Assembly: GCA_965223265.1 (NCBI GenBank)
Contig: OZ244999.1
Coordinates: 5,824,001 to 5,888,000, forward strand
Source of the DNA: Planctomycetota bacterium
GTDB taxonomy: Bacteria > Planctomycetota > UBA8108 > SXIK01
Length of the DNA stretch: 64,000 bases
Reading direction: 5' to 3'
Shown here one piece after another: positions 3,808 to 55,342 of the stretch. Both the position numbers and the translations under genes were made by a program. The notes below the pieces were generated by a model. It was not told the DNA's origin. It did not search any database and saw nothing but the letters and a program-made list of their open reading frames with translations. Numbering within the stretch: the stretch's first letter is position 1; the number at the start of each line of letters is the position of its first letter.

Positions 3808-3928
3808 CTATGACCATCTCCCGGAACGTACAGCTCTACTCACCGCCCCCGGACCCAACCCACTACCCCACGTCGGATTGAAGACGATCAAGCAGGGAAA
3901 ACTCCCCCGTTGAAAGTCGGACCATAGC
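3808..3928 (+). mobile_element. orphan right end of an IS1111-type element related to the one at 44346-45999
   Basis: CCCCACGTCGGATTGAAGAC..ATCAAG...CTCCCCCGTTGA..AGTCGGACCATAG closely matches ~45840-45999; followed by degenerate hexamer repeat TGTCTCCGCCTCTGACTTCGCCTC; left limit approximate. Confidence 0.75.
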
Positions 3929-40805: not shown

Positions 40806-41885
40806 TCATTCAACGGCCGGAGGCGTGATCGATCGCTTCGGACCACGCCGAAACGACTTTAACCGCGTCTGCCATCGCATGAATCCGAAGCGTGCGGCAC
40901 CTGCCTTGTAGTCGTTCTGTACAACAGCGCTCGTCGCCTCAAGAACAACCCCCGTCCTGGCATCGAAGACGATCACCTCGCGAAGACGTCGTCCGCTAGC
41001 GTCCGGTTTCGTGGAACCTGCAGCACGCACGCGGACTCGGCCACGCGTGGCCTTCACCTCAAGAATGTCGTACGTCACGCCGTCGACGGCGAAGTTCGCC
41101 CCTCGTCGAACTCGTGAGAGATCACGCGACGCCGGCACCGACACGACGCGTGCCAACGCGTCTTGAAAAAACCTCTCGATTCTCGGTCGCAGATCCTTCG
41201 GGTAACGCGCGGGCAGCGCGCGGTCGAGAAGTGTCGCGAGGTCCACGAAAGCAGGCTGCCCCGTCGAGGAGTCCAGGCTGATGCGAATCTCCACGTCGTT
41301 CAGGAGTACAACGGCCGCCCCGAGGAGCTGCTCCTCGAGCATTTCACGTTCGAGCTCATCGCGCAGGGAAGGACTCCAGGCGCTACTGGTCGACTCGATG
41401 ATTGCCTCGGCTCGGACGCGAGAACCCCTCTTCGCACCCGAGATCGTCCAGTCTCGACCGCGATCGTCGAAGTAGCGCACGCGGCTGACGGCCGGGACGA
41501 TCGTGAGCGTGCGGTCCGTGTTGGCCTCGCAGCGCAGGTTCATGTCGACGAAGAGTGGATCTTCGGCTCGCGGGACCGGCTGCATGGCTGGCTCAGTCGC
41601 CGTTGTTTCGCTTGGACCTTTTCGCAACTTCGTGCCGCTGGGGCTCTTTCGAAACGCTGCGAGCTCGGCGGGAGTCAGCGGCGCTCCGGGCCAAGATCGT
41701 CCGTCGACGTGGACACTCGCGACTTCCCAGGCGTTCGAGTACTTGAGATCGACGGTGAAACGGTCTCCCGGCCGCAGCGTAGGTCGCACGGGCGCCGCGC
41801 GCGACGTCTCCTCGGCGAGAACCGCGACTCCTGGAACAACAGAAACCCAAAGCATTTGCCCGAGCAAGACCATGGTAATCCGCAT
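40806..41885 (-). CDS. hypothetical exported protein
   Basis: GGAGG RBS, signal peptide VLA-E; no recognisable motif. Confidence 0.6.
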   Translation of the reverse strand: MRITMVLLGQMLWVSVVPGVAVLAEETSRAAPVRPTLRPGDRFTVDLKYSNAWEVASVHVDGRSWPGAPLTPAELAAFRKSPSGTKLRKGPSETTATEPAMQPVPRAEDPLFVDMNLRCEANTDRTLTIVPAVSRVRYFDDRGRDWTISGAKRGSRVRAEAIIESTSSAWSPSLRDELEREMLEEQLLGAAVVLLNDVEIRISLDSSTGQPAFVDLATLLDRALPARYPKDLRPRIERFFQDALARVVSVPASRDLSRVRRGANFAVDGVTYDILEVKATRGRVRVRAAGSTKPDASGRRLREVIVFDARTGVVLEATSAVVQNDYKAGAARFGFMRWQTRLKSFRRGPKRSITPPAVE

Positions 41886-41962
41886 GGTTGACCTCCGGAG
41901 GCGGGCCCTGGTCTCTCCGCTTTTCGATGAGAGATACGCATGGCGTGCCTGGATCATTCAAA

Positions 41963-42715
41963 TCAATCGAGGAACCACTCAAAAAGTCCGAACGGATCGG
42001 CCCAAATGAAGGCCCCGCCTGCCGTCCAGGTGAGGAGTGGAATCAAGATCGGCAGGAGAATTCTCTGAAGCATCCTCTCCCTTTCGAGCAGGTCCCAGAA
42101 AAGGGTCATGAGGTTGGTGGCGACGTTGCTCGCGGCCACCAAGGGGGCGCATTCCCACAGAAGGCTCAATATCGAACGAGCGGGAACCACGACTGAGCTA
42201 TGTTTCACTTCGTCGATCGACCACGCCGAAAAGAGAAGGAGTAGCCACGCGAGTGGGTAAAGCCCGATCACGACGGGCGTCAGTCGGTACACTTTCTGGC
42301 CGAGCCGTCGCCTCCCCCAAGTCCATGGCTCCGTCTTGGCAGCCTCGATCTTCTGCGCACGAGCGTCCAGCAGCGTCACAAGAGCGGCGTAGGCACAGGG
42401 AACCACGCACCAGACGATCATCGGTGCCGGTGTCCATGCAACATCAACGCAGTAACCGAGCCACGAAATAACACCTCCGCTTGGTGCGCAACTCGCGGCC
42501 AGACGGCCTGCAGAAATGCCGCTGGCACGGGCAGAGAGGTACGCGCCGAGGAAATAGGAAAGAGGGAATACGGCGGCGAACGTCGGCAAGCCCCAGGGGT
42601 AGTAGTCACGCGCGCTCCCCCATGAATCAACCCAAAAGCCCACGACAAAACCGAAACAGAAGCAGACGATGGGGAGATAAGGCGTGAGTGCGCGGATTCG
42701 CATGGGAGCAACCAT
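41963..42715 (-). CDS. hypothetical multi-pass membrane protein, probably co-transcribed with the alpha-2-macroglobulin gene
   Basis: about 7 hydrophobic segments; starts just after the A2M stop. Confidence 0.6.
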   Translation of the reverse strand: MVAPMRIRALTPYLPIVCFCFGFVVGFWVDSWGSARDYYPWGLPTFAAVFPLSYFLGAYLSARASGISAGRLAASCAPSGGVISWLGYCVDVAWTPAPMIVWCVVPCAYAALVTLLDARAQKIEAAKTEPWTWGRRRLGQKVYRLTPVVIGLYPLAWLLLLFSAWSIDEVKHSSVVVPARSILSLLWECAPLVAASNVATNLMTLFWDLLERERMLQRILLPILIPLLTWTAGGAFIWADPFGLFEWFLD

Positions 42716-43984
42716 GGGTATGTTAGCGATCCACGACTTCGACACGATCGAAGGTTCCGCGCCCGAAGACCTCCGGTTCGTACATCGCCTCAACTCTCGC
42801 TGCCGGCGTCAAGAAGAGACCTGGGGTCGTCGCGCGGACGAGGTATTCATGCACGTAGAATCCTTGCGGTAGCGACGTAACAAAAACCTCGGCCCGATCG
42901 TCGTGATGCTTTGACGCGGAGAAACGGAGACGCGTCAGCTCACCAGGTCCCCCCTTCAAGCGGCGAGACCACCGGGGCAAATCGCGACCCGCCTCGAATC
43001 CGGCAGGATAGGGATCGACGAGCGCGACATGACGTCGGCTCCGCGGCGTCATGAGGAATAGTCGCACGCGCACGAGCGCACCAGCCTTGACGCTTGCTCT
43101 GCCATCCGCGAGAAACTCGACATCCGACGGGTCATGGGCACCTTCGTAGCGGCGCGACACTTCGAAGCCGGCTGCAACTGCCGGGACGTCGACGTGTCCG
43201 AGCGCGTACTCGAGACGCAACCAGTAGAAAAGACGCCCCATTCCCTCTTGGGCGATCGTCAGCGACGCGACGTTGCCAGCCCCGGTTGTCAGATAGGAGC
43301 CGGGGACGTTCAACATCTGCGCGGGCGCCTGTCGCCCCTCGAAGACTCGCTCACCGAGAAACTTCTCGCCCAGCCAAGTACGCGCAACAAAACGCGGTGA
43401 CTCACGCTCAACCGCCGCGAAGTACCGACCAAGGGCCACGAGAGCGAACGCGTTCTCTTCGGTTGTACGCCACCGGCCCTGCTGCTGTCGACGAACGAGA
43501 CCGTCGGCGAGCTTGCCGACCAGTTCGTCTTCAGGATCACCGCCAGCAAGAACCTCAAGAAAAACCGCATGCGCCCGCAGTGGCGACGGGAGCACGCTTT
43601 CCCACGATGCATCCATCGCAGTCTCGATCTGGGCGCCCCGTGCCGTCTCGTACACTTGATTCTCCAGGTAGCGACGGATCTCAGCAGCCACGTCGCGTGC
43701 GTGTTCGTCGCACTGAAAAACCTCCAGAAGCCAGGCAAGCGCCTCTGCAGGATACCGATCCATCGGCGTCCTCAAAAACCACGTTCGAGCACCGCGACGC
43801 AGTGGAGTAGCCGCCGCAGAAGTAACGCCCCGACGAAGATGCTGGACATAGAAAGCGTACGATCGGATCAGCAACACTTCGGCCGAAAGGGACGATACGT
43901 CGTCAGTAGGCCGAAGGGTTGTGGGCGCGACGGTGTGTGTGTCCGACGGTGTTTGTGAGGCTGGGGTCGGTTGCGCTCCCGCCT

Positions 43985-44150
43985 CGGTTTGCGTGGGCGT
44001 TTGCGTGGGCGTTTGCGTGGGCGTTTGCGTGGGCGTGGGCGTGGGCGTGGGCGCGTGCGTGGGCGCGTGCGTGGGCACGTGCGACTGCGATTGCGTGGGC
44101 GATTGCGTGGGCGATTGCGTGGGCGATTGCGATTGCGTGGGCGTGGGCGT
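43985..44150. repeat. coding 6/12-bp tandem repeats (TGCGTGGGCGTT, GGCGTG, GATTGCGTGGGC) encoding a Pro/Thr/Gln linker in A2M
   Basis: direct reading; translates to TPTPTQSQSPTQ...TPTQTPTQ on the minus strand. Confidence 0.9.
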
Positions 44151-44172
44151 ATTCGTAACGCTATCCGCGTGC

Positions 44173-44345
44173 GCCTCTGCCTCTGTCTCTGTCTCTGCCT
44201 CTGTCTCTGCCTCTGTCTCTGTCTCTGTCTCTGTCTCTGTCTCTGTCTCTGTCTCTGTCTCTGTCTCCGTCTCTGTCTCTGTCTCTGTCTCCGTCTCTGT
44301 CTCTGTCTCTGCCTCTGTCTCTGTCTCTGTCTCTGTCTCTGCCTC
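44173..44345. repeat. (GTCTCT/GCCTCT/GTCTCC)n hexamer microsatellite, block 1 (encodes ET/EA)
   Basis: about 29 hexamers ending exactly at the IS left end. Confidence 0.95.
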
Positions 44346-44396
44346 AGAAACTATGGGCCGTCCTCGTGTACCATAGTCTTTTTTAGGAGTGAAGAG

Positions 44397-45524
44397 ATGG
44401 CAACAAGAACGACCCAGGGACAGCTTACCGACATGAGCGAAGTTCTTCACGTGGCAATTGACGTTGGCAACACAACGTGGAAGCTCGTCAGCGGTGTTGC
44501 GGGGAGCCGGCCGCGCTGCAGGACGGTCGAGGCGGGAAACCTTGCGGAGTTTCAGGAAGAGCTCTCGAAAGCCAAGGCGCGCTTGCGCCTTTCGCCGCAA
44601 GCTGAGGTGGTGAGCTGCTACGAAGCTGGCCGCGATGGATTCTGGCTGCACCGTTGGCTCGTAGACAGTGGGATCCACAACGCCGTCATTGACCCGGCTA
44701 GCTGCGAGGTCGATCAGCGCGCCAAGCGTCAAAAGACCGATCGCCTCGACGGAGAGAAGATGCTCGATCTTTTGATCCGTCACCACGGCTCGTCGCGCAG
44801 CCCACTGCGCGTTGTCAACGTGCCGAGCGTGCAGATCGAGGACGAGCGCCGCCTGCCAAGAGAGCGTCAGCGCCTTGTCAAGGATCGCACTCGGCACATC
44901 AATCGCCTCAAGGACATGTTGATCAAGTTCGGCATCCGCGCCCGCCTCAAGAAGCTGCCTGAAATCATCGACACGTTACGCGGCCCCGATGGATCTGCGA
45001 TCCCCCCGCATGCCAAGGCAGGCATGCTACGCGAGCACGCTCGGCTGCAGCTTGTCGAAGAGCAAATCGCTGAGATTGAGGCCGAGACTCTCGAAACGCT
45101 CACCAACTCGCCGGAGGCCTGCAAGAAAGTCGGCAAGCTCAACAGCCTGCGCGGCATCGGCATGTACACTGCCGCAACGCTCTACTACGAGTTCTTCTGG
45201 CGTAAGTTCAACAATCGCCGTGAAATCGGAGCCCTGGCAGGAATGGTGAGCGTTCCCTGGCGCAGTGACAACATCAAACGCGAGCAAGGAATCAGCAAGG
45301 CTGGCAACGGGCGTGTACGCACACTCATGGTTCAGGCTGCCTGGAACTGGCTGCGCTTTCAGCCACAGAGCCAGCTATCTCAATGGTTCTGCCAGCGCTA
45401 TGGGCCAGGCACCAAGCGCTCGCGCAAGGCGGGAATCGTCGCCTTAGCCAGAAAGCTGCTCATTTCGCTCTGGCGATTCCTCAGCACTGACGTACCACCT
45501 CCGTTGGCACGGCTCAGTTCCTAA
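44397..45524 (+). CDS. IS110-family DEDD recombinase/transposase (375 aa)
   Basis: AGGAG RBS; VAIDVG, CYEAG, KTDRLD, LRGIG, WRSD..EQGISKAGNGRVR, IVALARKL. Confidence 0.95.
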   Translation: MATRTTQGQLTDMSEVLHVAIDVGNTTWKLVSGVAGSRPRCRTVEAGNLAEFQEELSKAKARLRLSPQAEVVSCYEAGRDGFWLHRWLVDSGIHNAVIDPASCEVDQRAKRQKTDRLDGEKMLDLLIRHHGSSRSPLRVVNVPSVQIEDERRLPRERQRLVKDRTRHINRLKDMLIKFGIRARLKKLPEIIDTLRGPDGSAIPPHAKAGMLREHARLQLVEEQIAEIEAETLETLTNSPEACKKVGKLNSLRGIGMYTAATLYYEFFWRKFNNRREIGALAGMVSVPWRSDNIKREQGISKAGNGRVRTLMVQAAWNWLRFQPQSQLSQWFCQRYGPGTKRSRKAGIVALARKLLISLWRFLSTDVPPPLARLSS

Positions 45525-45999
45525 TTCGATGACCAGCAACAGGCTCAACACACCAACCCAACTCAAACGGAGGGACCTGCAGGGCTGACTCGGATTCTTG
45601 GCCGACTGTAGGACGCGTTCGAGCAGAGGCTGGGCTGGCTTTCCAAGCCGCCGTGCTTCTCAGAAGGAACCGTCCTTGTCGGTTCGCCTGCCGCGATGCG
45701 AACGCAGTATCAGGTGATCCGCCAGAGAGCGGACACGCATAGGAGTTGGCCGCGAGGCGCTTTGCCGCCCCGGCGCTCAGAGCGAACCGAACACTTGGCT
45801 TCTTTACCGCCAGCCCAAAGACAACACAGCACTACTACGAAAATGATCTCTCCCGCGTGCGGTACCTTCCGGGCTGCACAGAGCCCGGGGGCGCTCTACC
45901 CGCCGCCCCCCGGACCCCCAGGCAACCCAACTGCCCCACGTCGGATTGAAGACAATCAAGAAAAGAAAGCTCCCCCGTTGACAACAGTCGGACCATAGG
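45525..45999 (+). ncRNA. putative bridge/seekRNA-encoding 3' non-coding region of element A
   Basis: about 475 nt with hairpins; GCAGAGGC (45623-45630) is the reverse complement of the target GCCTC^TGC; CATAGGAG (45738-45745) equals the predicted circle junction; RNA limits unknown. Confidence 0.6.
45978..45983 (+). promoter_or_regulatory. outward-facing -35 (TTGACA) at the right end of element A, forming a promoter in the circular intermediate
   Basis: predicted junction gives TTGACA-17 nt-GAAACT upstream of the transposase; this layout is typical of IS1111-type elements. Confidence 0.55.
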
Positions 46000-46052
46000 T
46001 GCCTCTGCCTCTGTCTCTGCCTCTGCCTCTGTCTCTGCCTCTGTCTCTGCCT
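46000..46052. repeat. hexamer microsatellite, block 2, between the two IS elements
   Basis: TGCCTCTGCCTCTGTCTCTGCC... 53 nt. Confidence 0.95.
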
Positions 46053-46554
46053 TCCATGAGAAGGCCAAAAAGTCAAGAGAGGCGAACGTGGTCGCCGCCC
46101 GAGCGCAGCGAGGTCAATCGTTCTCTGCGCCGAGCGTAGCGAAGGTCAGTTGTAGGGTGGGCGGTCTACGCGGCAGGGAGGGGCCCGCGAGCGGCAATGA
46201 GTCCGCACGCGAAGCGTCTCGTTTGGCGGCCAGGCAGCAAATGCCCTTGCTGCCTGGCCAAGACCGTTTTGGTGCGCTGAGGTTTCCTGAGATTCTCGAA
46301 AGAGTCTATCGCGCGGTTGAAGCCAGCCTTCCATACGCACTTTGGGTGAGGAGTCTGTCCTGGAGTCCTCTGTGCAAGTTGGGGTCCGAACCGTCGTGGT
46401 GCTGCACACTCTGTCGCGAACTCCTGGTATGATCGAAGGAAATTTGGACGCCCTCGATCGGTTCAGTGCAGAGGTCGCAGTCACCAAGACGAGACTTTTC
46501 ACGCGGGTAGATCCTTCAGAGGCTTTTCAGTCGCCTCGTAATGACACAGGCGGC
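46053..46554 (-). ncRNA. putative bridge/seekRNA-encoding 3' non-coding region of element B
   Basis: about 500 nt; minus-strand GACAGAG (46415-46409) and ACAGAGG match the target; ATGGAAG (46334-46328) matches the circle junction; 13-bp hairpin at 46228-46259. Confidence 0.55.
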
Positions 46555-47631
46555 TCAGGCCGAGCGACGCGTCGAGCGCGAGGCGTTGTAGAGTGGATCG
46601 TAGCGCTCGCCGCTGGCCCAGAGGTGATGCATCAGCACGGCGAGCTTTCGTGCCACGGCGACCGTGGCTTGCTTTTTGCCCCTGGCAGCGCCGCGCTGTC
46701 CCAGCCGCTCACCGAAGCGCCTTAGATCGCAGTCCTCCCCGAACGGCCCCAAGATATAATGCGCGCTGCCGACAAGCAGTCGGCGTAGGTAGCCGTTGCC
46801 ATACTTCGAAATACGAAGCTGTGGAGTCCTCGACGAAGAGTCGTGCTGCTTCGGGACGAGTCCGAGATAGGCCCCGACCTTGCGGCTCTTGGAGAAACGC
46901 TCCGGGCTCTCCAGGCTCAAGACAAACGCCAGTGCCGTCAGTGGCCCTACGCCGTTGATCTCTTGAAGGCGCTTGGTCTCTGGGTACTTCTCTGAGAGCG
47001 CCTTGATCTCTCTGTCGTAGCTGCGCACCGTGGCGCTAAGCTGTCCGATCTGCTCGAGCATCGGTAGCACCGCCGCCTCGAGCTCCTCGGGAATATCCTC
47101 CCTGACTTTGTAGTGGAAGGCGGCGCTTGAGCAGCTCTTGAGGCGATACCCGCTCGACTTGACGAGACCTCGCACGCTGTTGATCAGTGTCGTGCGAGTG
47201 CGCACTACTGCGTCACGGGCACGGATGACTGCCAGGTCGTTTTGGGCTGAGAGCTGGCGGTGACGAACCGGTCGCAACAGGCGCGGGCTGCCCCAGCCCA
47301 GCGTCGCCAGGGTGACGGCGTCGAGCTCGTCGTTCTTGCGACCGTTGGCGGCAAGAGCACGCCCTGCGCAGACAGGATTGGCAACGATCACCTCGAAGCC
47401 GAGCTCTTCGAGCACCGCACTGACCCACGGCGAGTGCGTGCCCGCCTCGCAGACCACGCGCGAGCCTCGCGGGAACTCATCAAAGCGCCTAGCGAGCGCC
47501 GAGCGTGTCGTCGCCACGCGCTCGTTGGCGAGGATCTCTCCATCGAGCGTTATCGCCACCAAGTGGCTAAGGCGGTCGCCGAGATCAAGGCCGATAGACA
47601 ACATACGCTGTGTTTGATTACTTTGGGACAT
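46555..47631 (-). CDS. IS110-family DEDD recombinase/transposase (358 aa)
   Basis: AGAAGGAG RBS; IGLDLG, VCEAG, KNDELDA, INGVGP, YLGLVP..HDSS..RISKYGN, VAVARKL. Confidence 0.96.
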   Translation of the reverse strand: MSQSNQTQRMLSIGLDLGDRLSHLVAITLDGEILANERVATTRSALARRFDEFPRGSRVVCEAGTHSPWVSAVLEELGFEVIVANPVCAGRALAANGRKNDELDAVTLATLGWGSPRLLRPVRHRQLSAQNDLAVIRARDAVVRTRTTLINSVRGLVKSSGYRLKSCSSAAFHYKVREDIPEELEAAVLPMLEQIGQLSATVRSYDREIKALSEKYPETKRLQEINGVGPLTALAFVLSLESPERFSKSRKVGAYLGLVPKQHDSSSRTPQLRISKYGNGYLRRLLVGSAHYILGPFGEDCDLRRFGERLGQRGAARGKKQATVAVARKLAVLMHHLWASGERYDPLYNASRSTRRSA

Positions 47632-47723
47632 GGTCAGTCTCTCCTTCTGGGTTCAAAGCCCGGTTAATGTTGCAGATCCTTCTTCGGATACTGCGTGGAG
47701 GGACTGGCCTTCTCATCCCATCT

Positions 47724-47806
47724 CTGTCTCCGTCTCTGTCTCCGTCTCTGTCTCCGTCTCTGTCTCTGTCTCTGCCTCTGTCTCTGTCTTCGTCTCCGTC
47801 TCCGTC
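47724..47806. repeat. hexamer microsatellite, block 3
   Basis: CTGTCTCCGTCTCTGTCTCC... encoding TETETKTETEAETE in A2M. Confidence 0.95.
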
Positions 47807-50800
47807 CCCTCCAACTCAAAACCCCGCTCCGCGAACTCCTCCCATCGATCGAGGACACCGGCATTCACGGACAAGCCGGCACGTTCGGCGCGCACGAGAG
47901 CGTGGGCGACGTGACAACTGAGATACGGATCCACCTCGCCGCCTTGCCAGTACGGCCAGCCTCCGCCGCGCTGCAATCTTTCGAGTCGAAGGATATCGTC
48001 TTCGATGCGACTGCGAAGATGCTCCGCGCTCGGGAGTCCCATGAGCTCGAACGCCGCAGGAAACTCCAAAAACGCGGTCATGCCGAGCAGTCGCGATGCG
48101 ATCTGTTCGCCACAGTCATATGGATACTCGCCGAGGTAGCGCAGCGACTCAGCCAGTGTCTCTAGTCGCGTCGCCGTCAAGCGCACACTAAGGCCGCCGC
48201 GGTTCGCAAGCGCTGCGTTTGGTCGTGCGAGCGCCTCGCGCACCACGGCTGCTTGATCACCCATCGCCTCCAACTCTCCAGTGGCGACGACGGTCTCGAC
48301 GGGCGTGGGTTCGTGCACGGGGAACGACAATTCCGCTGCGTCCGAGAACTCTGCTGCAGTCGCCGCAGCTTGGACGATCGCCCTGCCGCCCTCCATGGCA
48401 AGCGCCGGAAACCGCACCTCGCGGCGGTCACGTGCGGCAACAGCGACTCGACTGCCGATCAAGTCTGGCAGGCTTTCGCCGTCGTCAGGCTTGGCGCGCC
48501 ATGAAATGCCGCGTGCCCGCATTGCCAAGTCGACGTTCAGTGTTTCGTCGGTGGCGTTCTGCAGGACGACGGTCATGTCGAACCGATCGCCGCGCCGCAC
48601 GAATCGCGGTGGCGATGGCCGCACAGCCAGCGGCAAGGTCGCTGTGACAACGGCAGAACCACTGCCGAATCGCTTCGTCGTGGCAGCGACCGCAGTGATT
48701 CGATAGCGGGTCAGAGTCCCTGGCAACGTCAAGGTCACGACAGCCTTGCCGTTTGCATCCGTCTGCACTGCAGGTGCGAAGAGTGCTGTCGCACGAAAGT
48801 CGCGCCGCAGTGCGATCGGCACGTCGCCCCCACTGGAGAGCGACGTCAAGACGGCACGCGCACCGGGAACGGCGTTAGGGTCTTCGGAGTCGAGCGCCAA
48901 GTTCGGAGGGCGGAAAATTCGTGATTCGCGGACGAGCTCGGACGCTTCTTTTGATGACGGCTCGAGGAACGACGCCATGCTCCAATGGCCGCGCACTTTC
49001 GTGTACGGGTAAGGATGGAACGTATCCACGAGGTCCGGTGCCTCGTAGTGTGCCAAGGCATGTATGGAATCATCGACGACGAGCACGCACACCTCCGCGT
49101 CGGAGACAGGACGCTCTCGGTGGTCTCGGACGGTGACATCGATCGTGGTCGATGCACCGGGAGCGAGCGCAGGATCATGCGGTGCGACATCGACGTGTAG
49201 ACGTCGCGATGCAAGCGAAACGTTCAGCGTCACAGTCGCGACGAGTGATGTCGGCCTGGTGGGTGCGGTCGCATCTTGAAGCTGCCTCGCATCGCGCGGC
49301 AGTGTCGCCAGTACGTCAACGTGCAGAAAAAGTTGAGGCAAGTGCTCTTCGCCGATCAAAAACTCGAGCGTGTGATTCGCGCCGTCCATGTCGAAACGCT
49401 GTGTCGACAGAAGGCCACTTCGGATCAAGGTCGCGACGCCCGACGCTGGAGAATAGGGCGACTTCACCAGCACACGCGCGATGTCACCTGGCTCATAGAC
49501 CTGTCGGTCAGGGACGAGCTCGAGTCGTTCAAGACGTGGCGTGCGCGGAGCATGGCGCTCGATTCCAGAGACCCAGAGAGTGCGCTCGGCAACAGCCCTG
49601 CGGCCGTCCGGATCGACGGTCTCGGCGCGGACGACGTGGGTTCCGGCGCGCTGAGGAATGAAATCGACGCTGACCGGTTGGTCGGCGGAGATGACCCGTG
49701 TTGCTTGCTGGTCCGACTCCACCCGTAGGCGGCCATTCGGCCCATCAACCCATTCGGTCCGCACCATCTCGAACGCGATCGGCACACCGGACTTCGTCTT
49801 CCCCGCCGGATCGACAACGACGGCCTCGAGCGGCACCGACGCGCCGGCGGCGACAAACGATTCACTGGTGCGCAGTCCAACCAGCCTAGAGGACGGAAGG
49901 ACGACGAGCTCAGACCAGGTGCGCCTCTCGAATCGGGTCACATCCAAAACTCTTGCCGTCAGGTAGACCGACATAGGCTCCGATGAACGTACGTGCGCAA
50001 AGTCGACGCGCAGTCGATGGATGCCGGTCGCGTCCGTTCGCCCGCTGAGCTCGACCTCATGAACAGTCCCCTCCGAGTGGAACTCCTCATCGAAATCCCC
50101 CCACCAGGGCGACCAGCGGCCAAAGGTGAACGAATCCCATCCTGGGATAGAAACCTGCGCCGGGGACGAGCTCGCCTGCCAGCGGACGAACGCGTTCGCG
50201 AGCGGCCCGGACGACAGATAGTGCGCGGCCAGCGTCACCTCGGCGGACCCGCCGCTAAAATGTGGCCCGGGGTCAGGAATGCAGGATATCTCGAATTCAG
50301 GACGGCGGTACTCTCGCACGATCACGTTTCGCGACGCAACCTCCTCGCCGCGAGCGAACACCTTGACCTTGGGCCATTCGTTACCCGTTGGTAACCGAAA
50401 GGAAAAATCGAAACCACCGAGCGGCGTGAGGGCCGCCGCTCCTTCGCGCGTATGGCTCTCGCCGGCGATCACGTAGCGCACCTCGTGGATGTCTGTCGGA
50501 AGCCCGACGTCACCGCCGCGCCGGTGGTCTACGCGCCGTAGCCATCCCTTGACGTGGACCTCGTCTCCGGGGCGATAGACTCCGCGATCGAGGAGAAGCT
50601 CGCAGCGGTCAGATCGATGCGGCACCTCGTCGAAGCGCCAGGCGGAACGGCCGCCGTAGTCGTAGGGATCCAAGAACGCCGAGTCGTCTCGCAAGCGTGC
50701 GACCAGAAGAGGCGGTTCGCCGATCATGCCAGCGAGGTCGAGCGTCGCGAAGTCGCCGTCGGTCACACCAGCTGCCGACGTCGGCGGGTAGAAGGAAACC

Positions 50801-53313
50801 GCTGCGCCATCGACGTTCGTCCGATCGCTTAGTCGCGTCACCCATGCAGTCAACTTCGATGGATCCCAAAGCGCTAGCAGTTGTAGCTGGGTGCGTTCGA
50901 GCCAAATGGCCCGAGGCCGAGTGTCGTAAGCTCGCTCAAACTGCGGGGCGTTGACACGAACAACCGCGACTGCATGGCCAACCCCGCCCGGAAATGCACG
51001 CGTCAAGTTCAGCCGCGTCTCAACGAGCTCATTGACATGCCCGCGCACTGAGATGCGCTCACTGAAGAGGTGAACACCGGGAACCTGTAGTGCGCGATCA
51101 CGCTGCAATTCCTCGTCGCGATCGACTTCCTCGAGCCACTCACGGTAGCGAAGAAATCGCCCCCAATCCGCAACTTCCACGCGGTACACGGAGAGGTCGA
51201 TCGATTCGAGGTTGATCGCATAGCAAGAGAGCCCCGGCGGCCTGTCGGGGTCGAGGACGACTTTCTTTTCCGAACCCACGAAGTGGAGCCCTGGTCGCTC
51301 GCGCGTTTCGTCGAAGTGCAGTGTCACGTCGCCGCCGAGGGTCCGCCCCTGATGGTCACGGAGGCTGCTGGGAAGGGTCACTTGAAACGCTGTGGCGTCG
51401 GTGTCGTCGATGACGATCGTGAGGCTCTGACGTTCTACCTCGATGCGACTCGAGGTCACAGCCGGGCAGATTCCAATCCTTGAATGATCGCCAAGGGATG
51501 ATGGATCGAGCGGTGCTGTGAACGAGATTCCAAGCTCGACTCGATCGAAGCCGTCGGCGCCGTGGTACTCGACCGCGAAATCGTCACGTTTCTTCTCGCG
51601 GTACACCTCGAAGCGAAGACGCTCAACGCGATCGCTGACCTGCTCGCCGACGAGGGAACGAACTCCAGGTTTGAGCTCGACGTCGACGTGATCCGAAAGC
51701 AACTCGGGGACTCGGTAAGCAACCCAGTTCCCAGGCCGCACAGCCCTCCGAACCGACCCCCTTTGGGGATTCAACGGTTGCTCCCAGTCGTTGCTGTCCG
51801 ACTGAAGCTCTCGCTGCTTCAAAGAGTAGTGTTCCTCGACGTCTTCCCACGTCAAACGCTCTACTGCGACCCGCTTCCCCTCGCAGCTCACAACCAGTCG
51901 CTCCTGCACCGAAGCTACATCGATCGGCTGGTTGAAGACGAGAACGATGGGTGCATTGCTGTCGACGCGCCAGTCGGATGGATGAAAACGTACGAGCCGG
52001 GGCGGGGCTGTTGAAAACTCGAAGACTGCCGTCTCTTCGAGCAGGGCTCCCGAAAGTGACGTGAGGGAGCGAGGCACTTCGACGCGATAGCGCGTCGCCA
52101 TCGGAAAAAACCGTTCCTGCGGTGTAGTGCCAGGGACGAAAAGAAGTGTCCGTGTGTCCAACCACCTCCAGTTTCCTACCGCATGCGGCTTCAGCTGCAG
52201 CGACGGCGCGGAAGAAGGAACGAGCTGCATTCCAAGCGGCACCATCGGCTGCGAGAAGGTGACCCGGATATGATCCGCGCGTTCGACACCCCCCTGCGGG
52301 GAGAAACGTACGATGCGAAGAGGCTCGCGTGCGTCTGCGTTTCCAGACACGTCCTCGGCGCCGCGGCGAGTCGTGTTCGACGCCAGACCGACGCGGCGAG
52401 ACGGCGGCGTTGTCGAAGGTGAGGCGGGAAGAGGTCGCTGCTCGGTCGGTAGCTGCAGCAGCGCGTCCTGCTTCTTCTCTGGAGCCTTCAGATGCGGCAG
52501 GCGGTAGAAGATGCTCGCAGCCTTGGAAGAGGCGAGCGGTTCGGGAGTGCATGGCGCGGCGCGGTCTCGATGCAACGAGCCGACAGTGGGAGGCCTCGCA
52601 GGCGCCGACGCCGACTCGGAGAGTCGAAACGGCGGTTCATCCGCATCGCTCTCAATGGGCCAACCGAACGCCGCTTCGAACGTCGCTCCGAGCGTCACCG
52701 CCACCAGAGAGGAGAGAAACCAGGGAAAGGATGCGCGTCGGCTGCAGTCTGGCCGGAGCCCCCGTCGAAGTCGCCGTCGAGGTCGCCGAGATCGCCGTCG
52801 CATCGCGCCCTCCTGGAACTTCTCCATCCCTGAAGCTTTCGACTCAATGCTTCAGTGTAACTGCGCACGGTCACGGAACTGTCATGAAAAGAAAAACGCT
52901 GCCTCTTGGCTTCTTGAGCGGGGAGAGAAGTCGAGCACTGCGCGAGGACGACGCAAATTCGGACGGCACTCACGGCGAGCTTTCGAGAGCCAAAGGCCGA
53001 CACCATCTCCGGTTCCGCTTCGGTCTCTTTCTCGAACTCCGAGTTCGTGTCGGTTCTATGTCCGTAATCCGACTCCGTCCCCCGATACCTACCCCAGAAT
53101 GGCAAGTAAGAACGCCGAAGAGCGCACTACGGAGACCCAAAACTGCTGGTGCCCCCGTTCGAAGAGTGAAAACGACTGATGTCTACTCTACATTTCGCAG
53201 GCTGGGAGTTTATCTCGCAGTCGCGCAGGTCGTTCTGCCGTTCCGCGAGTGCCACACAACTCTTTATATGTCGCCTTCTGTCACAGGCCGGCATCGGAAG
53301 CTCAAAAGCGATA

Positions 53314-54591
53314 TCAAGGAGTCGATTGTTTCGTGTCGGCTGCCGGCAAGCTGGTATTGAGTCGTCGATTCAAGAGTTGTCTCACCGCCGGAGTTGGAGC
53401 CAATTCGAGTGCCGTATTCATATATCTGGCCGCCGCATCGGAGTTTCCACATCGCCGATGCAGATCTGCGAGTACGGCAGCCCACATGTAGGAGTTACTC
53501 AGCCACGTTGGCGGTTCAAAGCCGCTTAGAATGGCGAGACCCGCCTCGGGTCCATCGCACTCTGCGACCGCTATAGCCCGGTTCAGTTTGTGTACTGGGG
53601 AGGGTGAAACTAGCTCCAGCAACGAATAGCAGTCCACGACTCTGCTCCAACGGGTCGCATGGAACGAAGGTGAGAGGCAGTGCTCCGCAGCGACTCCTGC
53701 CTCAGCGTGGTAACGAGAAAAACAGTCCCCTTGCGCCGACTTCGCTAGCCACTTCAATCCAGATTGGATTTGATCTCGGTCCCACAGTGCCCGGTCTTGC
53801 TCCTCCAAGAGAAGCAATCCGCCAGACCCGTCCTCACGAGCAGCCATCCGAGCCACGTGAAGATGCATCAACGCCAGAAGTGCGAACGTCTCTGGACTCT
53901 GACCTACCGGATGTTCAGCCAAGGCGGAAGCCAGGCGTATCGCTTCTTCGCAGAGCTCCAGTCGAGTCGCGTGCTCTCCGTGAAAGGAAAGGTAGCCTTC
54001 TGTAAACAGTACATAGAGGGTCCGATTTACCGCAGGTAATCGCCAAGAATACTGGGCACCAGAGAGCTCGCCGAGCTGTGGCGGGTCCTGCCGCAGACGA
54101 GAGCGGGCTCGACTGAGACGTTTGTATACGCTGGTTTCGCTCGCAAACAACCGAAGCGCAATCTCTCGAACCCCGAATCCGCAGAGCACTTTCAGCGCCA
54201 GCACTAACTGTGATTCCTGCGGAATGGCATCGTCGCAACAGACAAATAGCATTCGCAGCAGGTCGTCTCGCATCTCCCCAACAAAAGAGCACTCCGGACT
54301 GTTTTCCGGAGTGCCCAGGCCTTCGTGTCCGAACTGCTCGAGAATGCGTCCGCGCCGCGTTCGTTGCCGCAGCTCAGTCATGAGGTCGTTGTGCGCCACC
54401 CGAAATAGCCAAGCTGACGGGTTATCGGGCGCCGCCGCGGCCGTCCACTCCTCAAGCGCCTTCATCAGGGCGGACTGAACCGCGTCCTCTACGGCCTCGA
54501 TGTGCTGTACTCCGACCCGGTGCGACAGCGCGGCAACGAGACGACTGTACTCATGCCGGAAGAAGTGCTCGACCAGTTTCGGCGTGCTCAA
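53314..54591 (-). CDS. ECF RNA polymerase sigma factor with C-terminal extension (DUF6596/TPR-like), YciI-associated
   Basis: EDAVQSA, PSAWLFRVAHN, DDLLRMLFVCC, LFTEGY, EEQDRALWD; TTG start overlapping the YciI stop (TTGA). Confidence 0.9.
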   Translation of the reverse strand: MSTPKLVEHFFRHEYSRLVAALSHRVGVQHIEAVEDAVQSALMKALEEWTAAAAPDNPSAWLFRVAHNDLMTELRQRTRRGRILEQFGHEGLGTPENSPECSFVGEMRDDLLRMLFVCCDDAIPQESQLVLALKVLCGFGVREIALRLFASETSVYKRLSRARSRLRQDPPQLGELSGAQYSWRLPAVNRTLYVLFTEGYLSFHGEHATRLELCEEAIRLASALAEHPVGQSPETFALLALMHLHVARMAAREDGSGGLLLLEEQDRALWDRDQIQSGLKWLAKSAQGDCFSRYHAEAGVAAEHCLSPSFHATRWSRVVDCYSLLELVSPSPVHKLNRAIAVAECDGPEAGLAILSGFEPPTWLSNSYMWAAVLADLHRRCGNSDAAARYMNTALELAPTPAVRQLLNRRLNTSLPAADTKQSTP

Positions 54592-54935
54592 GGAGTACGA
54601 ATCTCTCTGACTTCTACGCTTGAACCGGGCATAACGACGCCCGGAGATTCTTGAGCCACTTCGACCGCCTCTTCCAGACTTTCTGCCTCGATAATCATAT
54701 ACCCGCCGACCACCTCCTTCGCCTCCACGAATGGCCCATCCGTTGCACCTGCTAAGGTGACTACTTTTCCGTCTCCCAACTTCCCGCCCATGTCGACGAG
54801 GTTCTCCTGGAACTTCTCCTTCCATGCATTGAACTTGGCATACATCTCTTCCATGCGTGCGGGAGACGGTCGTTCGCAGTTCGCCTGTTCGGCCGGCTGG
54901 GCTCGTTGGATACAAAGGTACTTTCGCTTTGACAT
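54588..54935 (-). CDS. YciI/DGPF-family protein
   Basis: TDGPFVEAKEVVGGYMII..VEVRE; GGAGG RBS. Confidence 0.92.
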   Translation of the reverse strand: MSKRKYLCIQRAQPAEQANCERPSPARMEEMYAKFNAWKEKFQENLVDMGGKLGDGKVVTLAGATDGPFVEAKEVVGGYMIIEAESLEEAVEVAQESPGVVMPGSSVEVREIRTP

Positions 54936-55342
54936 CGTGACCTCCTTTGGTCGTTGCGTTGTGGCGTCGGTCGGACTCAGCCGACACCACATGACGCATG
55001 GGCACGCTCGTTTTGGACACACCAGCGCGCCTTTTTTCGGAGTTCGTCGTAAGTCACTGGAAAGTAACCAATTATGAGCGCCGAGTCGGCTGCAATGTTG
55101 GCCACGGTTCTAACTTTATACCGAATAGCCGGTTCCGAAAAGACTCCGTACTTCGGCCGCCTCCCCGACGAAGATGGATTCTACCCACAGAATCTTTGGT
55201 GTTAGAGGTGGCGACCCCCAGGCAGGCGCCAGAGTTCCGGACCAGAGAAGGTCCGGAGAAAGAGAAGAGTACCTCGTCCGCACGAGCTCTCGACCAGGGG
55301 CGCAGATGGCACGTCACAACCGCTCGGGTACCACTGCGCCCA

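Follow-up and report, generated by a model that had tools for sequence, protein, structure and literature searches.

Two divergent IS1111-type elements, probably RNA-guided, share a hexanucleotide microsatellite target and interrupt an alpha-2-macroglobulin gene in a Planctomycetota bacterium

Insertion sequences (IS) of the IS110/IS1111 type are established as RNA-guided elements that favour repeated sequences. The IS1111-type layout is described in passages of PMC11187229 and PMC11208160; its members ISEc11, ISPa11 and ISKpn4 possess a DEDD transposase, sub-terminal inverted repeats and a non-coding region 3′ of the transposase gene, and they make no target duplication (PMC11187229). According to the same source, their seekRNAs contain two short matches to the target, the top-strand match lying 5′ of the bottom-strand match, changes in the guides have retargeted elements in nature (ISEc11 compared with ISXne4), and the targets treated there are repetitive extragenic palindromes (REPs), attC sites and a site specific to ISEc11. 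In the IS110 group, the bridge RNA of IS621 holds left and right target guides as well as donor guides, each with a core dinucleotide, the left guides pairing with the bottom strand and the right guides with the top strand (PMC11208160). Here we describe two elements, designated A and B, in a 64,000-nt stretch (the window; positions 5,824,001 to 5,888,000 of contig OZ244999.1, assembly GCA_965223265.1) of a Planctomycetota bacterium. Both have the IS1111-type layout, and their predicted guides resemble those of the above systems, including the order of the two matches in the RNA, but their target is a hexanucleotide tandem repeat, and together they interrupt a gene for an alpha-2-macroglobulin (A2M). 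Positions refer to the window unless the contig is named.

The A2M gene lay on the minus strand in three pieces (Table 1), and between its N- and C-terminal pieces we read, in this order, 83 nt of repeat, element B, 53 nt of repeat, element A and 171 nt of repeat. Pfam domains Big_5, MG2, bMG5, A2M_BRD (the bait region) and A2M were found in the N-terminal piece together with the thioester motif CGEQ, which falls at residue 1572 of the rejoined protein. As the gene now stands, its frame enters element B for three codons and meets a stop at 47713-47715, giving a truncated reading frame of 1704 aa. When A and B were removed in silico, the three pieces joined into 5104 + 53 + 1623 = 6780 nt, that is 2259 codons and a stop without any internal stop, which reproduced the restored frame with intact CGEQ given in the preliminary description of this DNA. 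The nearest orthologues, from the same taxonomic order, had intact open reading frames (ORFs) of 2042-2100 aa and were 31-34% identical to the N-terminal piece and 36-39% identical to the C-terminal one. The former was collinear with orthologue residues ~142-1638 and the latter, from its residue 160, with ~1658 onward, so that order and orientation of the two pieces fit one orthologous gene. The locus thus offers the features of a bacterial A2M, namely MG domains, bait region, A2M domain, the CxEQ motif (as CGEQ), a C-terminal MG10 domain and collinearity with orthologues.

Both elements were inserted within a (GAGRCR)n tract of ~307 nt in total, for which ~309 bp with 53 bp between the elements had been estimated earlier. 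Read on the A2M strand, the repeat consists of GAGACA/GAGGCA/GAGACG units that code for a (TE/AE)n linker (residues 1681-1776 of the rejoined protein), and a second repeat, coding for a stretch rich in P, T, Q and S, lies next to it. The hexamer phase and the reading frame were kept across all three pieces of the tract. Together the two repeats make up a low-complexity insert of ~210 aa, some 110 aa after the thioester motif, where the orthologues have ~20 residues. Because the alignment to orthologues resumes from ~1638 to ~1658, the insert is, on this comparison, lineage-specific, and both elements sit inside it.

The host genome is a single contig of 9.18 Mb (9,179,496 bp) with 60.8% G+C, and it contains 13 IS110-family transposase genes, none with an internal stop; 12 of these belong to A or B and one to a distant element, C. 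Element A was present in eight copies (99.7-100% identity), five of them in a head-to-tail array at 487-496 kb with 36-72 nt of repeat between neighbours and the others at 743 kb, at 904 kb and in the A2M locus. Four copies of B (97-100% identity) were located at 402 kb, side by side at 5.605 Mb (two copies) and in the A2M locus. All 12 copies, at six distinct loci, lay within (CTCYGY)n tracts in a fixed phase and orientation. In 8/8 copies of A the left junction was ..YCTC|AGAAAC and the right junction CATAGG|TGYCTCTGCC; the left-end junction of B was the same in 4/4 copies and the right-end junction in 3/4, the fourth copy (B3) having a truncated right end that abuts the repeat. Strict tracts, defined as at least four CTCYGY units, numbered 51 in the genome and summed to 3636 bp, or 0.04% of the sequence; since 12/12 copies fall in so small a fraction, chance is excluded. 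Of six decayed remnants, four abutted tract-like sequence at the expected end. The microsatellite targeting put forward in the preliminary description was thereby borne out, no copy in this genome having unrelated flanks.

Perfect sites for the elements were unevenly spread: 26 of the genome's 56 perfect A-type sites fell in the A-array locus and 8 of its 26 perfect B0-type sites (B0 to B3 denote the four B copies) in the A2M locus, and the 53-nt piece between A and B (46000-46052) retains one perfect A-type site. As perfect sites cluster where elements do, the presence of A and B 53 bp apart in one of the genome's longest tracts is expected rather than remarkable.

A repeat flanking every copy, together with the internal tandem duplications that do occur at the elements' right ends, could be taken to mean that the tracts are produced or carried by the elements, through expansion of the repeat at element ends or through flanks carried along at transposition, and are not pre-existing targets. 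We regard this as extremely unlikely. Of the 51 pieces of strict tract, 12 adjoin a copy of A or B; the remaining 39 stand at element-free places, which marks the repeat as a feature of the genome and not a product of the elements. Some tracts are part of genes that are unremarkable in other respects, where they code for an (ET)n linker joining Ser/Thr kinase and FGE-sulfatase domains (contig 3454016-3457054) or for the (DG/DR)n tail of a PQQ beta-propeller protein (contig 1837492-1840893), and the A2M tract is in frame on both sides. Moreover, the guides described below lie far inside the elements and obey the same positional rule as in relatives whose targets are not repetitive.

Membership of A and B in the IS110 family was clear from the transposases, both of which carried PF01548 (DEDD_Tnp_IS110) and PF02371 (Transposase_20) and scored above the NF033542 cut-off of 140 bits. 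At 375 and 358 aa they are longer than the 330-350 aa quoted for the IS1111 family in PMC11187229, and they share 27% identity with each other. The IS1111 subgroup is recognised by sub-terminal inverted repeats of 7-17 bp, and such repeats were present in both elements with different sequences; that of A was missed by the repeat tool because of its central mismatch. The non-coding region 3′ of the transposase gene measured 475 nt in A (45525-45999) and 502 nt in B (46554-46053), and the upstream (5′) non-coding ends 51 and 92 nt. Taken together these data supported an IS1111-type layout for A and B, in agreement with the earlier assignment and with the divergence of transposases and inverted repeats reported with it. 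Plasmid matches obtained by tblastn reached 47% identity at most, and their annotation went no further than 'IS110 family transposase', with no named IS.

The junctions of all 12 copies were read, and no target duplication was seen in A or in B. In B a dinucleotide, CT (AG on the element's own strand), is common to flank and element end, donor and target core both being AG. In A no base is common to flank and element end; the donor core is AG and the target core TG, only the second base agreeing, and in all eight copies the donor AG stood at the left junction and the target TG at the right. The insertions had been called scarless; this calls for some qualification, B having a 2-nt core in common with its target and A a donor core that departs from the target core at the first base.

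To read the guides, positions were defined from relatives and then transferred to A and B. The nearest relatives of transposase B reached 36-54% identity among 400 sampled genomes of the host's phylum and 39-55% on metagenome contigs. An alignment of 13 sequences showed a conserved scaffold of ~130 nt in the 3′ non-coding region of this family, with three positions that vary by element. In the RNAalifold structure, a stem UGCAC/GUGCG was invariant and a terminal hairpin showed compensatory changes. The segment after a conserved GACUGCG matched the reverse complement of AG plus the right flank, and is the predicted right-target guide: the longest shared run averaged 5.6 against 3.40 in shuffled pairs (maximum 4.4 of 1000; 20/23 usable loci) and, in metagenomes, 6.17 against 3.51 (maximum 3.97; 60/63 motif-bearing loci of 80). 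A heptamer before a GCAGC stem, ending in an invariant AG, corresponded to the five terminal left-flank bases followed by AG, with 2.93/5 matches against 1.30 shuffled (n=15) and, at metagenome loci, 3.75/5 against 1.68 (n=20; exact in 9/20). The predicted left-donor guide lay in a motif AGUGCGnAU(G/A)GAAG, whose G/A position tracks each element's own right end.

At these positions element B reads CCUCUGC, one extra base and then CU as its right guide and GACAGAG as its left guide, and both match the hexamer repeat. The predicted target, GACAG/AG/GCAGAGR, is the hexamer repeat itself and is matched exactly by the left flank of B0. The four B copies provided a natural experiment in guide-target covariation that is unusually clean. 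B0 has GACAG in both left guide and flank, and B1 and B3 have GACGG in both, so the A/G change in the left guide co-varies with the flank; on the right side, the guide of B1 and B2 is UCUCUGC, and B2 has the right flank GCAGAGA.

The nearest relatives of transposase A were 41-49% identical and came mostly from Burkholderiales records. Homology between the non-coding region of A and those of its relatives became visible only after anchored extraction and MAFFT alignment. The scaffold, which differs from that of the B family, consists of a closing stem, the right guide, a hairpin, the left guide with AG, AUGGGGCGCG and later GGUGACCGGC...GCCGGCACGGAUAGAAG. Here the right guide corresponded to the reverse complement of the core G plus the right flank, with a mean of 6.56/9 against 4.20 shuffled (maximum 4.90) at the 41 loci with a detectable right end, of 75 with an anchor; 18/41 scored 9/9, and several of the low scores were register slips of the anchors. 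The donor guide of A aligned with GAUAGAAG of the relatives, which is itself equal to their right-end terminus, and the guides were identical in all eight copies of A. The RNA guidance that had earlier been assumed from knowledge of the family thus gained predicted guide segments in both elements, each matching the repeat. Other approaches were less informative. A BLAST search of the non-coding region of A against 80 A relatives gave no match at E<=0.01, and an Rfam scan of 42000-53500 (E<=1) gave no bridge-RNA family, its single match, to an internal ribosome entry site (IRES), being discarded as chance. Direct matching of 6-8-mers between the non-coding regions and target or donor was likewise set aside as ambiguous until the scaffolds of relatives had been aligned.

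From the above, A and B are very probably RNA-guided and apparently active IS1111-type elements that target the hexamer repeat through their own guides, with inactivation of the A2M gene as the outcome. The copy distribution, the junctions, the matches between guides and flanks, the covariation among relatives and among the B copies and the restoration of the frame in silico were all read directly; from these sequences we infer production of the RNA and its binding, the course of strand exchange and the present activity of the elements. In the proposed mechanism, a non-coding RNA (seekRNA or bridge RNA) encoded 3′ of the transposase gene would carry guides complementary to the repeat, whose two strands read (CTCYGY)n and (GAGRCR)n. 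Loaded with this RNA, the DEDD transposase would then recombine the circularised element into the repeat in one phase and one orientation, without target duplication. Element A would recognise YCTC / TG / CCTCTGC on its transposase strand; the site of element B, on the other strand and shifted in phase by 3 nt relative to that of A, would be GACAG / AG / GCAGAGR. Both follow the order in which the top-strand match is 5′ of the bottom-strand match. Since a tract would hold many equivalent sites that are kept after insertion, elements would pile up in the richest tracts, as in the five-copy A array and the A + B pair. The repeat encodes the lineage-specific (TE/AE)n linker of the A2M gene, which would explain why this gene was hit; the gene would simply be inactivated by the insertions.

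The two elements differ in RNA scaffold, in the strand of the repeat that they use and in their crossover points, which are separated by 3 nt within the hexamer, and their transposases share 27% identity; these differences point to independent acquisition of the same target by A and B, as the convergence suggested in the preliminary description would have it. A periodic target makes the left guide of each element complementary to its right guide, and this complementarity may affect RNA loading or regulation. The minimum-energy fold of the free RNA pairs the guides with each other (45606-45685 on the plus strand, 46395-46482 on the minus strand; z about -2).

No microsatellite was found at the junction in any of 188 loci of relatives: none of the 80 loci of A relatives had any tract, none of the 28 loci of B relatives in the phylum sample had a CTCYGY tract, and three of the 80 metagenome loci of B relatives had a microsatellite of at least 20 nt, none at the junction. 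Apparent exceptions were rejected as targets. In one genome (G200) a hexamer tract near a B relative lay 35 nt from the end in 1/3 copies, the other two flanks being unrelated, and in three metagenome loci (L181, L182 and L206) the hexamer tracts were not at the junctions.

Several points weigh against the RNA-guided reading and are gathered here. In A, the donor core AG differs from the target core TG; the left guide has U against C in 7/8 flanks and is exact only in copy A3; and the left-guide rule of the family is weak (2.11/5 against 1.37 shuffled). At best, that U could form a G-U pair with the bottom strand. The AG-left and TG-right outcome in A would follow if the top strand alone fixes the result, a role for the top strand that has been proposed in a preprint (10.1101/2025.10.25.684509). 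In B, the right guide needs a 1-nt bulge before the core CU, the right flank of B0 matches the right guide at 6/7 only, and the left guide of B2 (GACGG, flank GTCGG) has one mismatch. The shuffle controls were built from related loci and the regular-expression anchors misplace some guides, so that the figures are rough. No close relative (>55% identity) was present in the collections searched. Finally, the arrangement of A and B rests on one single-contig assembly that public short-read contigs do not bridge.

This last point raises the alternative of an assembly artefact, in which multi-copy elements and collapsed microsatellites were mis-joined and A and B are not inside the A2M gene. Public reads consisted of short-read contigs (Logan) from four runs of one study; these contigs break at tracts, stopping at 43986 and resuming at 47821 with none that spans a tract, and the tandem five-copy A array is a type of structure that assemblers get wrong. 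An artefact is nevertheless very unlikely, as it would have to preserve the hexamer phase and the frame over three tract pieces, identical junction sequences at every copy and the right order and orientation of the A2M pieces for one orthologous gene. The summed contig depth over A and B was also several-fold that of the flanks, which fits multiple copies, although depth is not copy number.

The preliminary description had further proposed that precise excision could act as an on/off switch for an envelope protease inhibitor. On this reading the paired insertion would be a reversible phase-variation device, A2M expression returning once A and B had both left precisely. The model behind this idea is IS492 of Pseudoalteromonas atlantica, an IS110-family element cited for high-frequency precise excision that restores a gene (reference in PMC11208160). 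At the A2M locus, removal in silico of both elements restored a single 2259-codon frame, and the transposase genes are intact; however, IS492 is one element in one place, and its excision has been demonstrated, whereas here two independent precise excisions would be needed. Excision is reported, in passages on IS110-group elements, to be less efficient than insertion (PMC13626964) or to release a copy while the donor is left intact (10.1101/2025.10.25.684509, 10.64898/2026.08.31.748434). No empty site, single-insertion contig or circle junction was found among the contigs of the four runs, which, being broken at tracts, say nothing of absence. A joint from 43716 to 48603 (skipping 4886 nt) had depth 2.5, a side of 21 and 26 foreign letters and is not an excision product. 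When the elements were taken out in silico at the five remaining loci, no long gene was clearly restored, the GC3-filtered ORF lists used there not being decisive. The data gave no support to the switch, and as the excision studies cited concern IS110-group elements and not the IS1111 subgroup, we consider it unlikely rather than excluded.

A broader proposal would treat the microsatellite and the two elements as a co-evolving system, in which slippage-prone and partly coding (GAGRCR)n tracts serve as landing pads that renew themselves and single-base guide variants (B0 against B1-B3) follow the variants of the repeat unit. Genes with (TE)n linkers, this envelope A2M among them, would become contingency loci through insertion and infrequent precise excision, and A would recombine across a mismatched core. 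This seems improbable to us on present evidence.

Some further observations concern the copies of A and B and their relatives. The A array alternates between a 1743-nt variant with an 88-nt internal duplication and a 1654-nt form, and it may have arisen by joint amplification of two insertions instead of by five events in succession; the three copies with the duplication lie at contig 487257-488999, 490744-492486 and 494267-496009. B1 had two extra copies of its last ~200 nt (contig 403770-404165), and the relative's element in genome G200 showed a right-end tandem duplication with three copies of 325 nt. Such right-end duplications resemble the one-sided tandem expansions described in 10.64898/2026.08.14.744561. 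B3 lacked its last ~134 nt (contig 5604790-5604923), and internal non-coding sequence was joined directly to the hexamer repeat; the break looks like the product of a deletion, or of aberrant recombination, in which the tract took part.

Element C (contig ~2059830-2061530), a single copy, was 44% identical to transposase B and had the B-family RNA scaffold. Its left guide CACGAAG matched its own flank at 6/7, the flank holding two copies of a 9-mer, and the element adjoins a region dense in other microsatellites. A 44-nt unit occurred 68 times in the genome (<=4 mismatches), nearly always within another hexamer microsatellite (GYGWGC-like) and often in arrays with a 59-nt period; its locations include contig 1672817-1673885, 2061827-2062236, 4207188-4207607, 4855450-4856008, 4913969-4914213, 5650368-5650890 and 6975473-6976929. 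This unit may belong to a compound minisatellite, or it may be a very small non-autonomous element that, like A and B, resides in a microsatellite.

Among the neighbours of the A2M gene, the upstream one (53314-55020, minus strand) encodes an ECF-type sigma factor with a DUF6596 domain, and the two downstream ORFs (41963-42793 and 40806-41957) had no Pfam match. No pbpC-like partner gene was found among these three neighbouring ORFs.

Table 1. Positions of the A2M gene pieces, the hexamer tract, elements A and B with their predicted guides, and a remnant (window coordinates)
Feature	Position	Strand	Remarks
A2M gene, N-terminal piece	47724..52827	-	5104 nt; ORF 47713-52827
A2M gene, C-terminal piece	42723..44345	-	1623 nt; bMG10, PF17973 at 1.1e-25
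Second coding repeat	43987..44150	-	P/T/Q/S-rich stretch; hexamer/dodecamer, GCGTGG-like on + strand
Hexamer tract, upstream piece	47724..47806		83 nt; TE repeats on minus strand; TRF and translation
Hexamer tract, middle piece	46000..46052		53 nt between A and B
Hexamer tract, downstream piece	44175..44345		171 nt; encodes (TE/AE)n
Element A, IS1111-type, IS110 family	44346..45999	+	8 genome copies, identical junctions
Transposase A, 375 aa	44397..45524	+	NF033542 194.4 bits; PF01548, PF02371
A sub-terminal inverted repeat	44351-44360 / 45989-45998		9/10, read from sequence
A predicted right-target guide AGCAGAGGC	45622..45630	+	aligned with 13 relatives; 8/9 nt = reverse complement of core-G + CCTCTGCC
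A predicted left-target guide CUUCUCAG	45656..45663	+	alignment position; left flank YCTC + AG
A predicted left-donor guide CAUAGGAG	45738..45745	+	right-end terminus CATAGG + left end's first two bases AG
Element B, IS1111-type, IS110 family	46053..47723	- (own sense strand)	4 genome copies
Transposase B, 358 aa	46555..47631	-	NF033542 197.4 bits; PF01548, PF02371
B sub-terminal inverted repeat	46056-46067 (right-end arm) / 47705-47716		12/12 complementary
B anchor GGUGACUGCG (46476-46485), then predicted right-target guide ACCUCUGCACU (46465-46475)	46465..46485	-	position of core + right-flank reverse complement in relatives
B predicted left-target guide GACAGAG	46409..46415	-	5 nt left flank + core AG; variable heptamer in 13 aligned sequences
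B predicted left-donor guide AUGGAAG	46328..46334	-	right-end terminus + core AG
Decayed right-end remnant, A-like	3833..3927	+	BLAST 81% over 106 nt; abuts tract-like sequence

The use of an abundant short repeat as a multi-copy landing site recalls the REP-targeting elements ISPpu9 (PMC12288879) and ISPpu10 (10.64898/2026.03.19.712850). REPs, however, are dispersed intergenic palindromes, whereas the repeat of A and B is a tandem microsatellite that is sometimes coding, so that insertions can break genes. In contrast to the IS1111 elements of PMC11187229, the tracts of A and B offer many registers, the guide halves are mutually complementary and insertions stack; and in contrast to IS621, which has its RNA in the left end and the core CT (PMC11208160), A and B have the predicted RNA in the right end and the core AG on their own strand, the target core of A being TG against its donor AG. 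No report of a microsatellite target for IS110/IS1111 elements was found in the literature searched, while supplementary tables (ISfinder-wide target logos) could hold a comparable case; the passages on tandem repeats in the IS110 bridge-RNA literature concern tandem duplication of cargo or element parts and not targets. An RNA-guided targeting mechanism for A and B is well supported by comparison of sequences, and the microsatellite target is, as far as that literature goes, new. Microsatellite-specific non-LTR retrotransposons of eukaryotes home to simple repeats as A and B do; they use target-primed reverse transcription, with an endonuclease and a reverse transcriptase, and not an RNA-guided DEDD recombinase.

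Programmable genome writing is a use for which IS110/IS1111 recombinases are being developed, while the mapping of their natural target range is still in progress. The present locus indicates that a tandem simple repeat can be a natural target and that it was probably reached independently by two elements with different RNA scaffolds, while the guide-target covariation within one genome amounts to a natural retargeting experiment. The mutually complementary guides, and the insertion of A across a core whose first base differs, are oddities that invite mechanistic tests; if A is truly a natural case of mismatched-core recombination, it would bear on the debate between top-strand-first and copy-out mechanisms. 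For the host there would be a cost, as a microsatellite that codes for protein linkers becomes a hotspot of gene disruption, and the kinase/FGE-sulfatase and PQQ propeller genes are, judging from their tracts, further genes exposed to elements of the A and B type.

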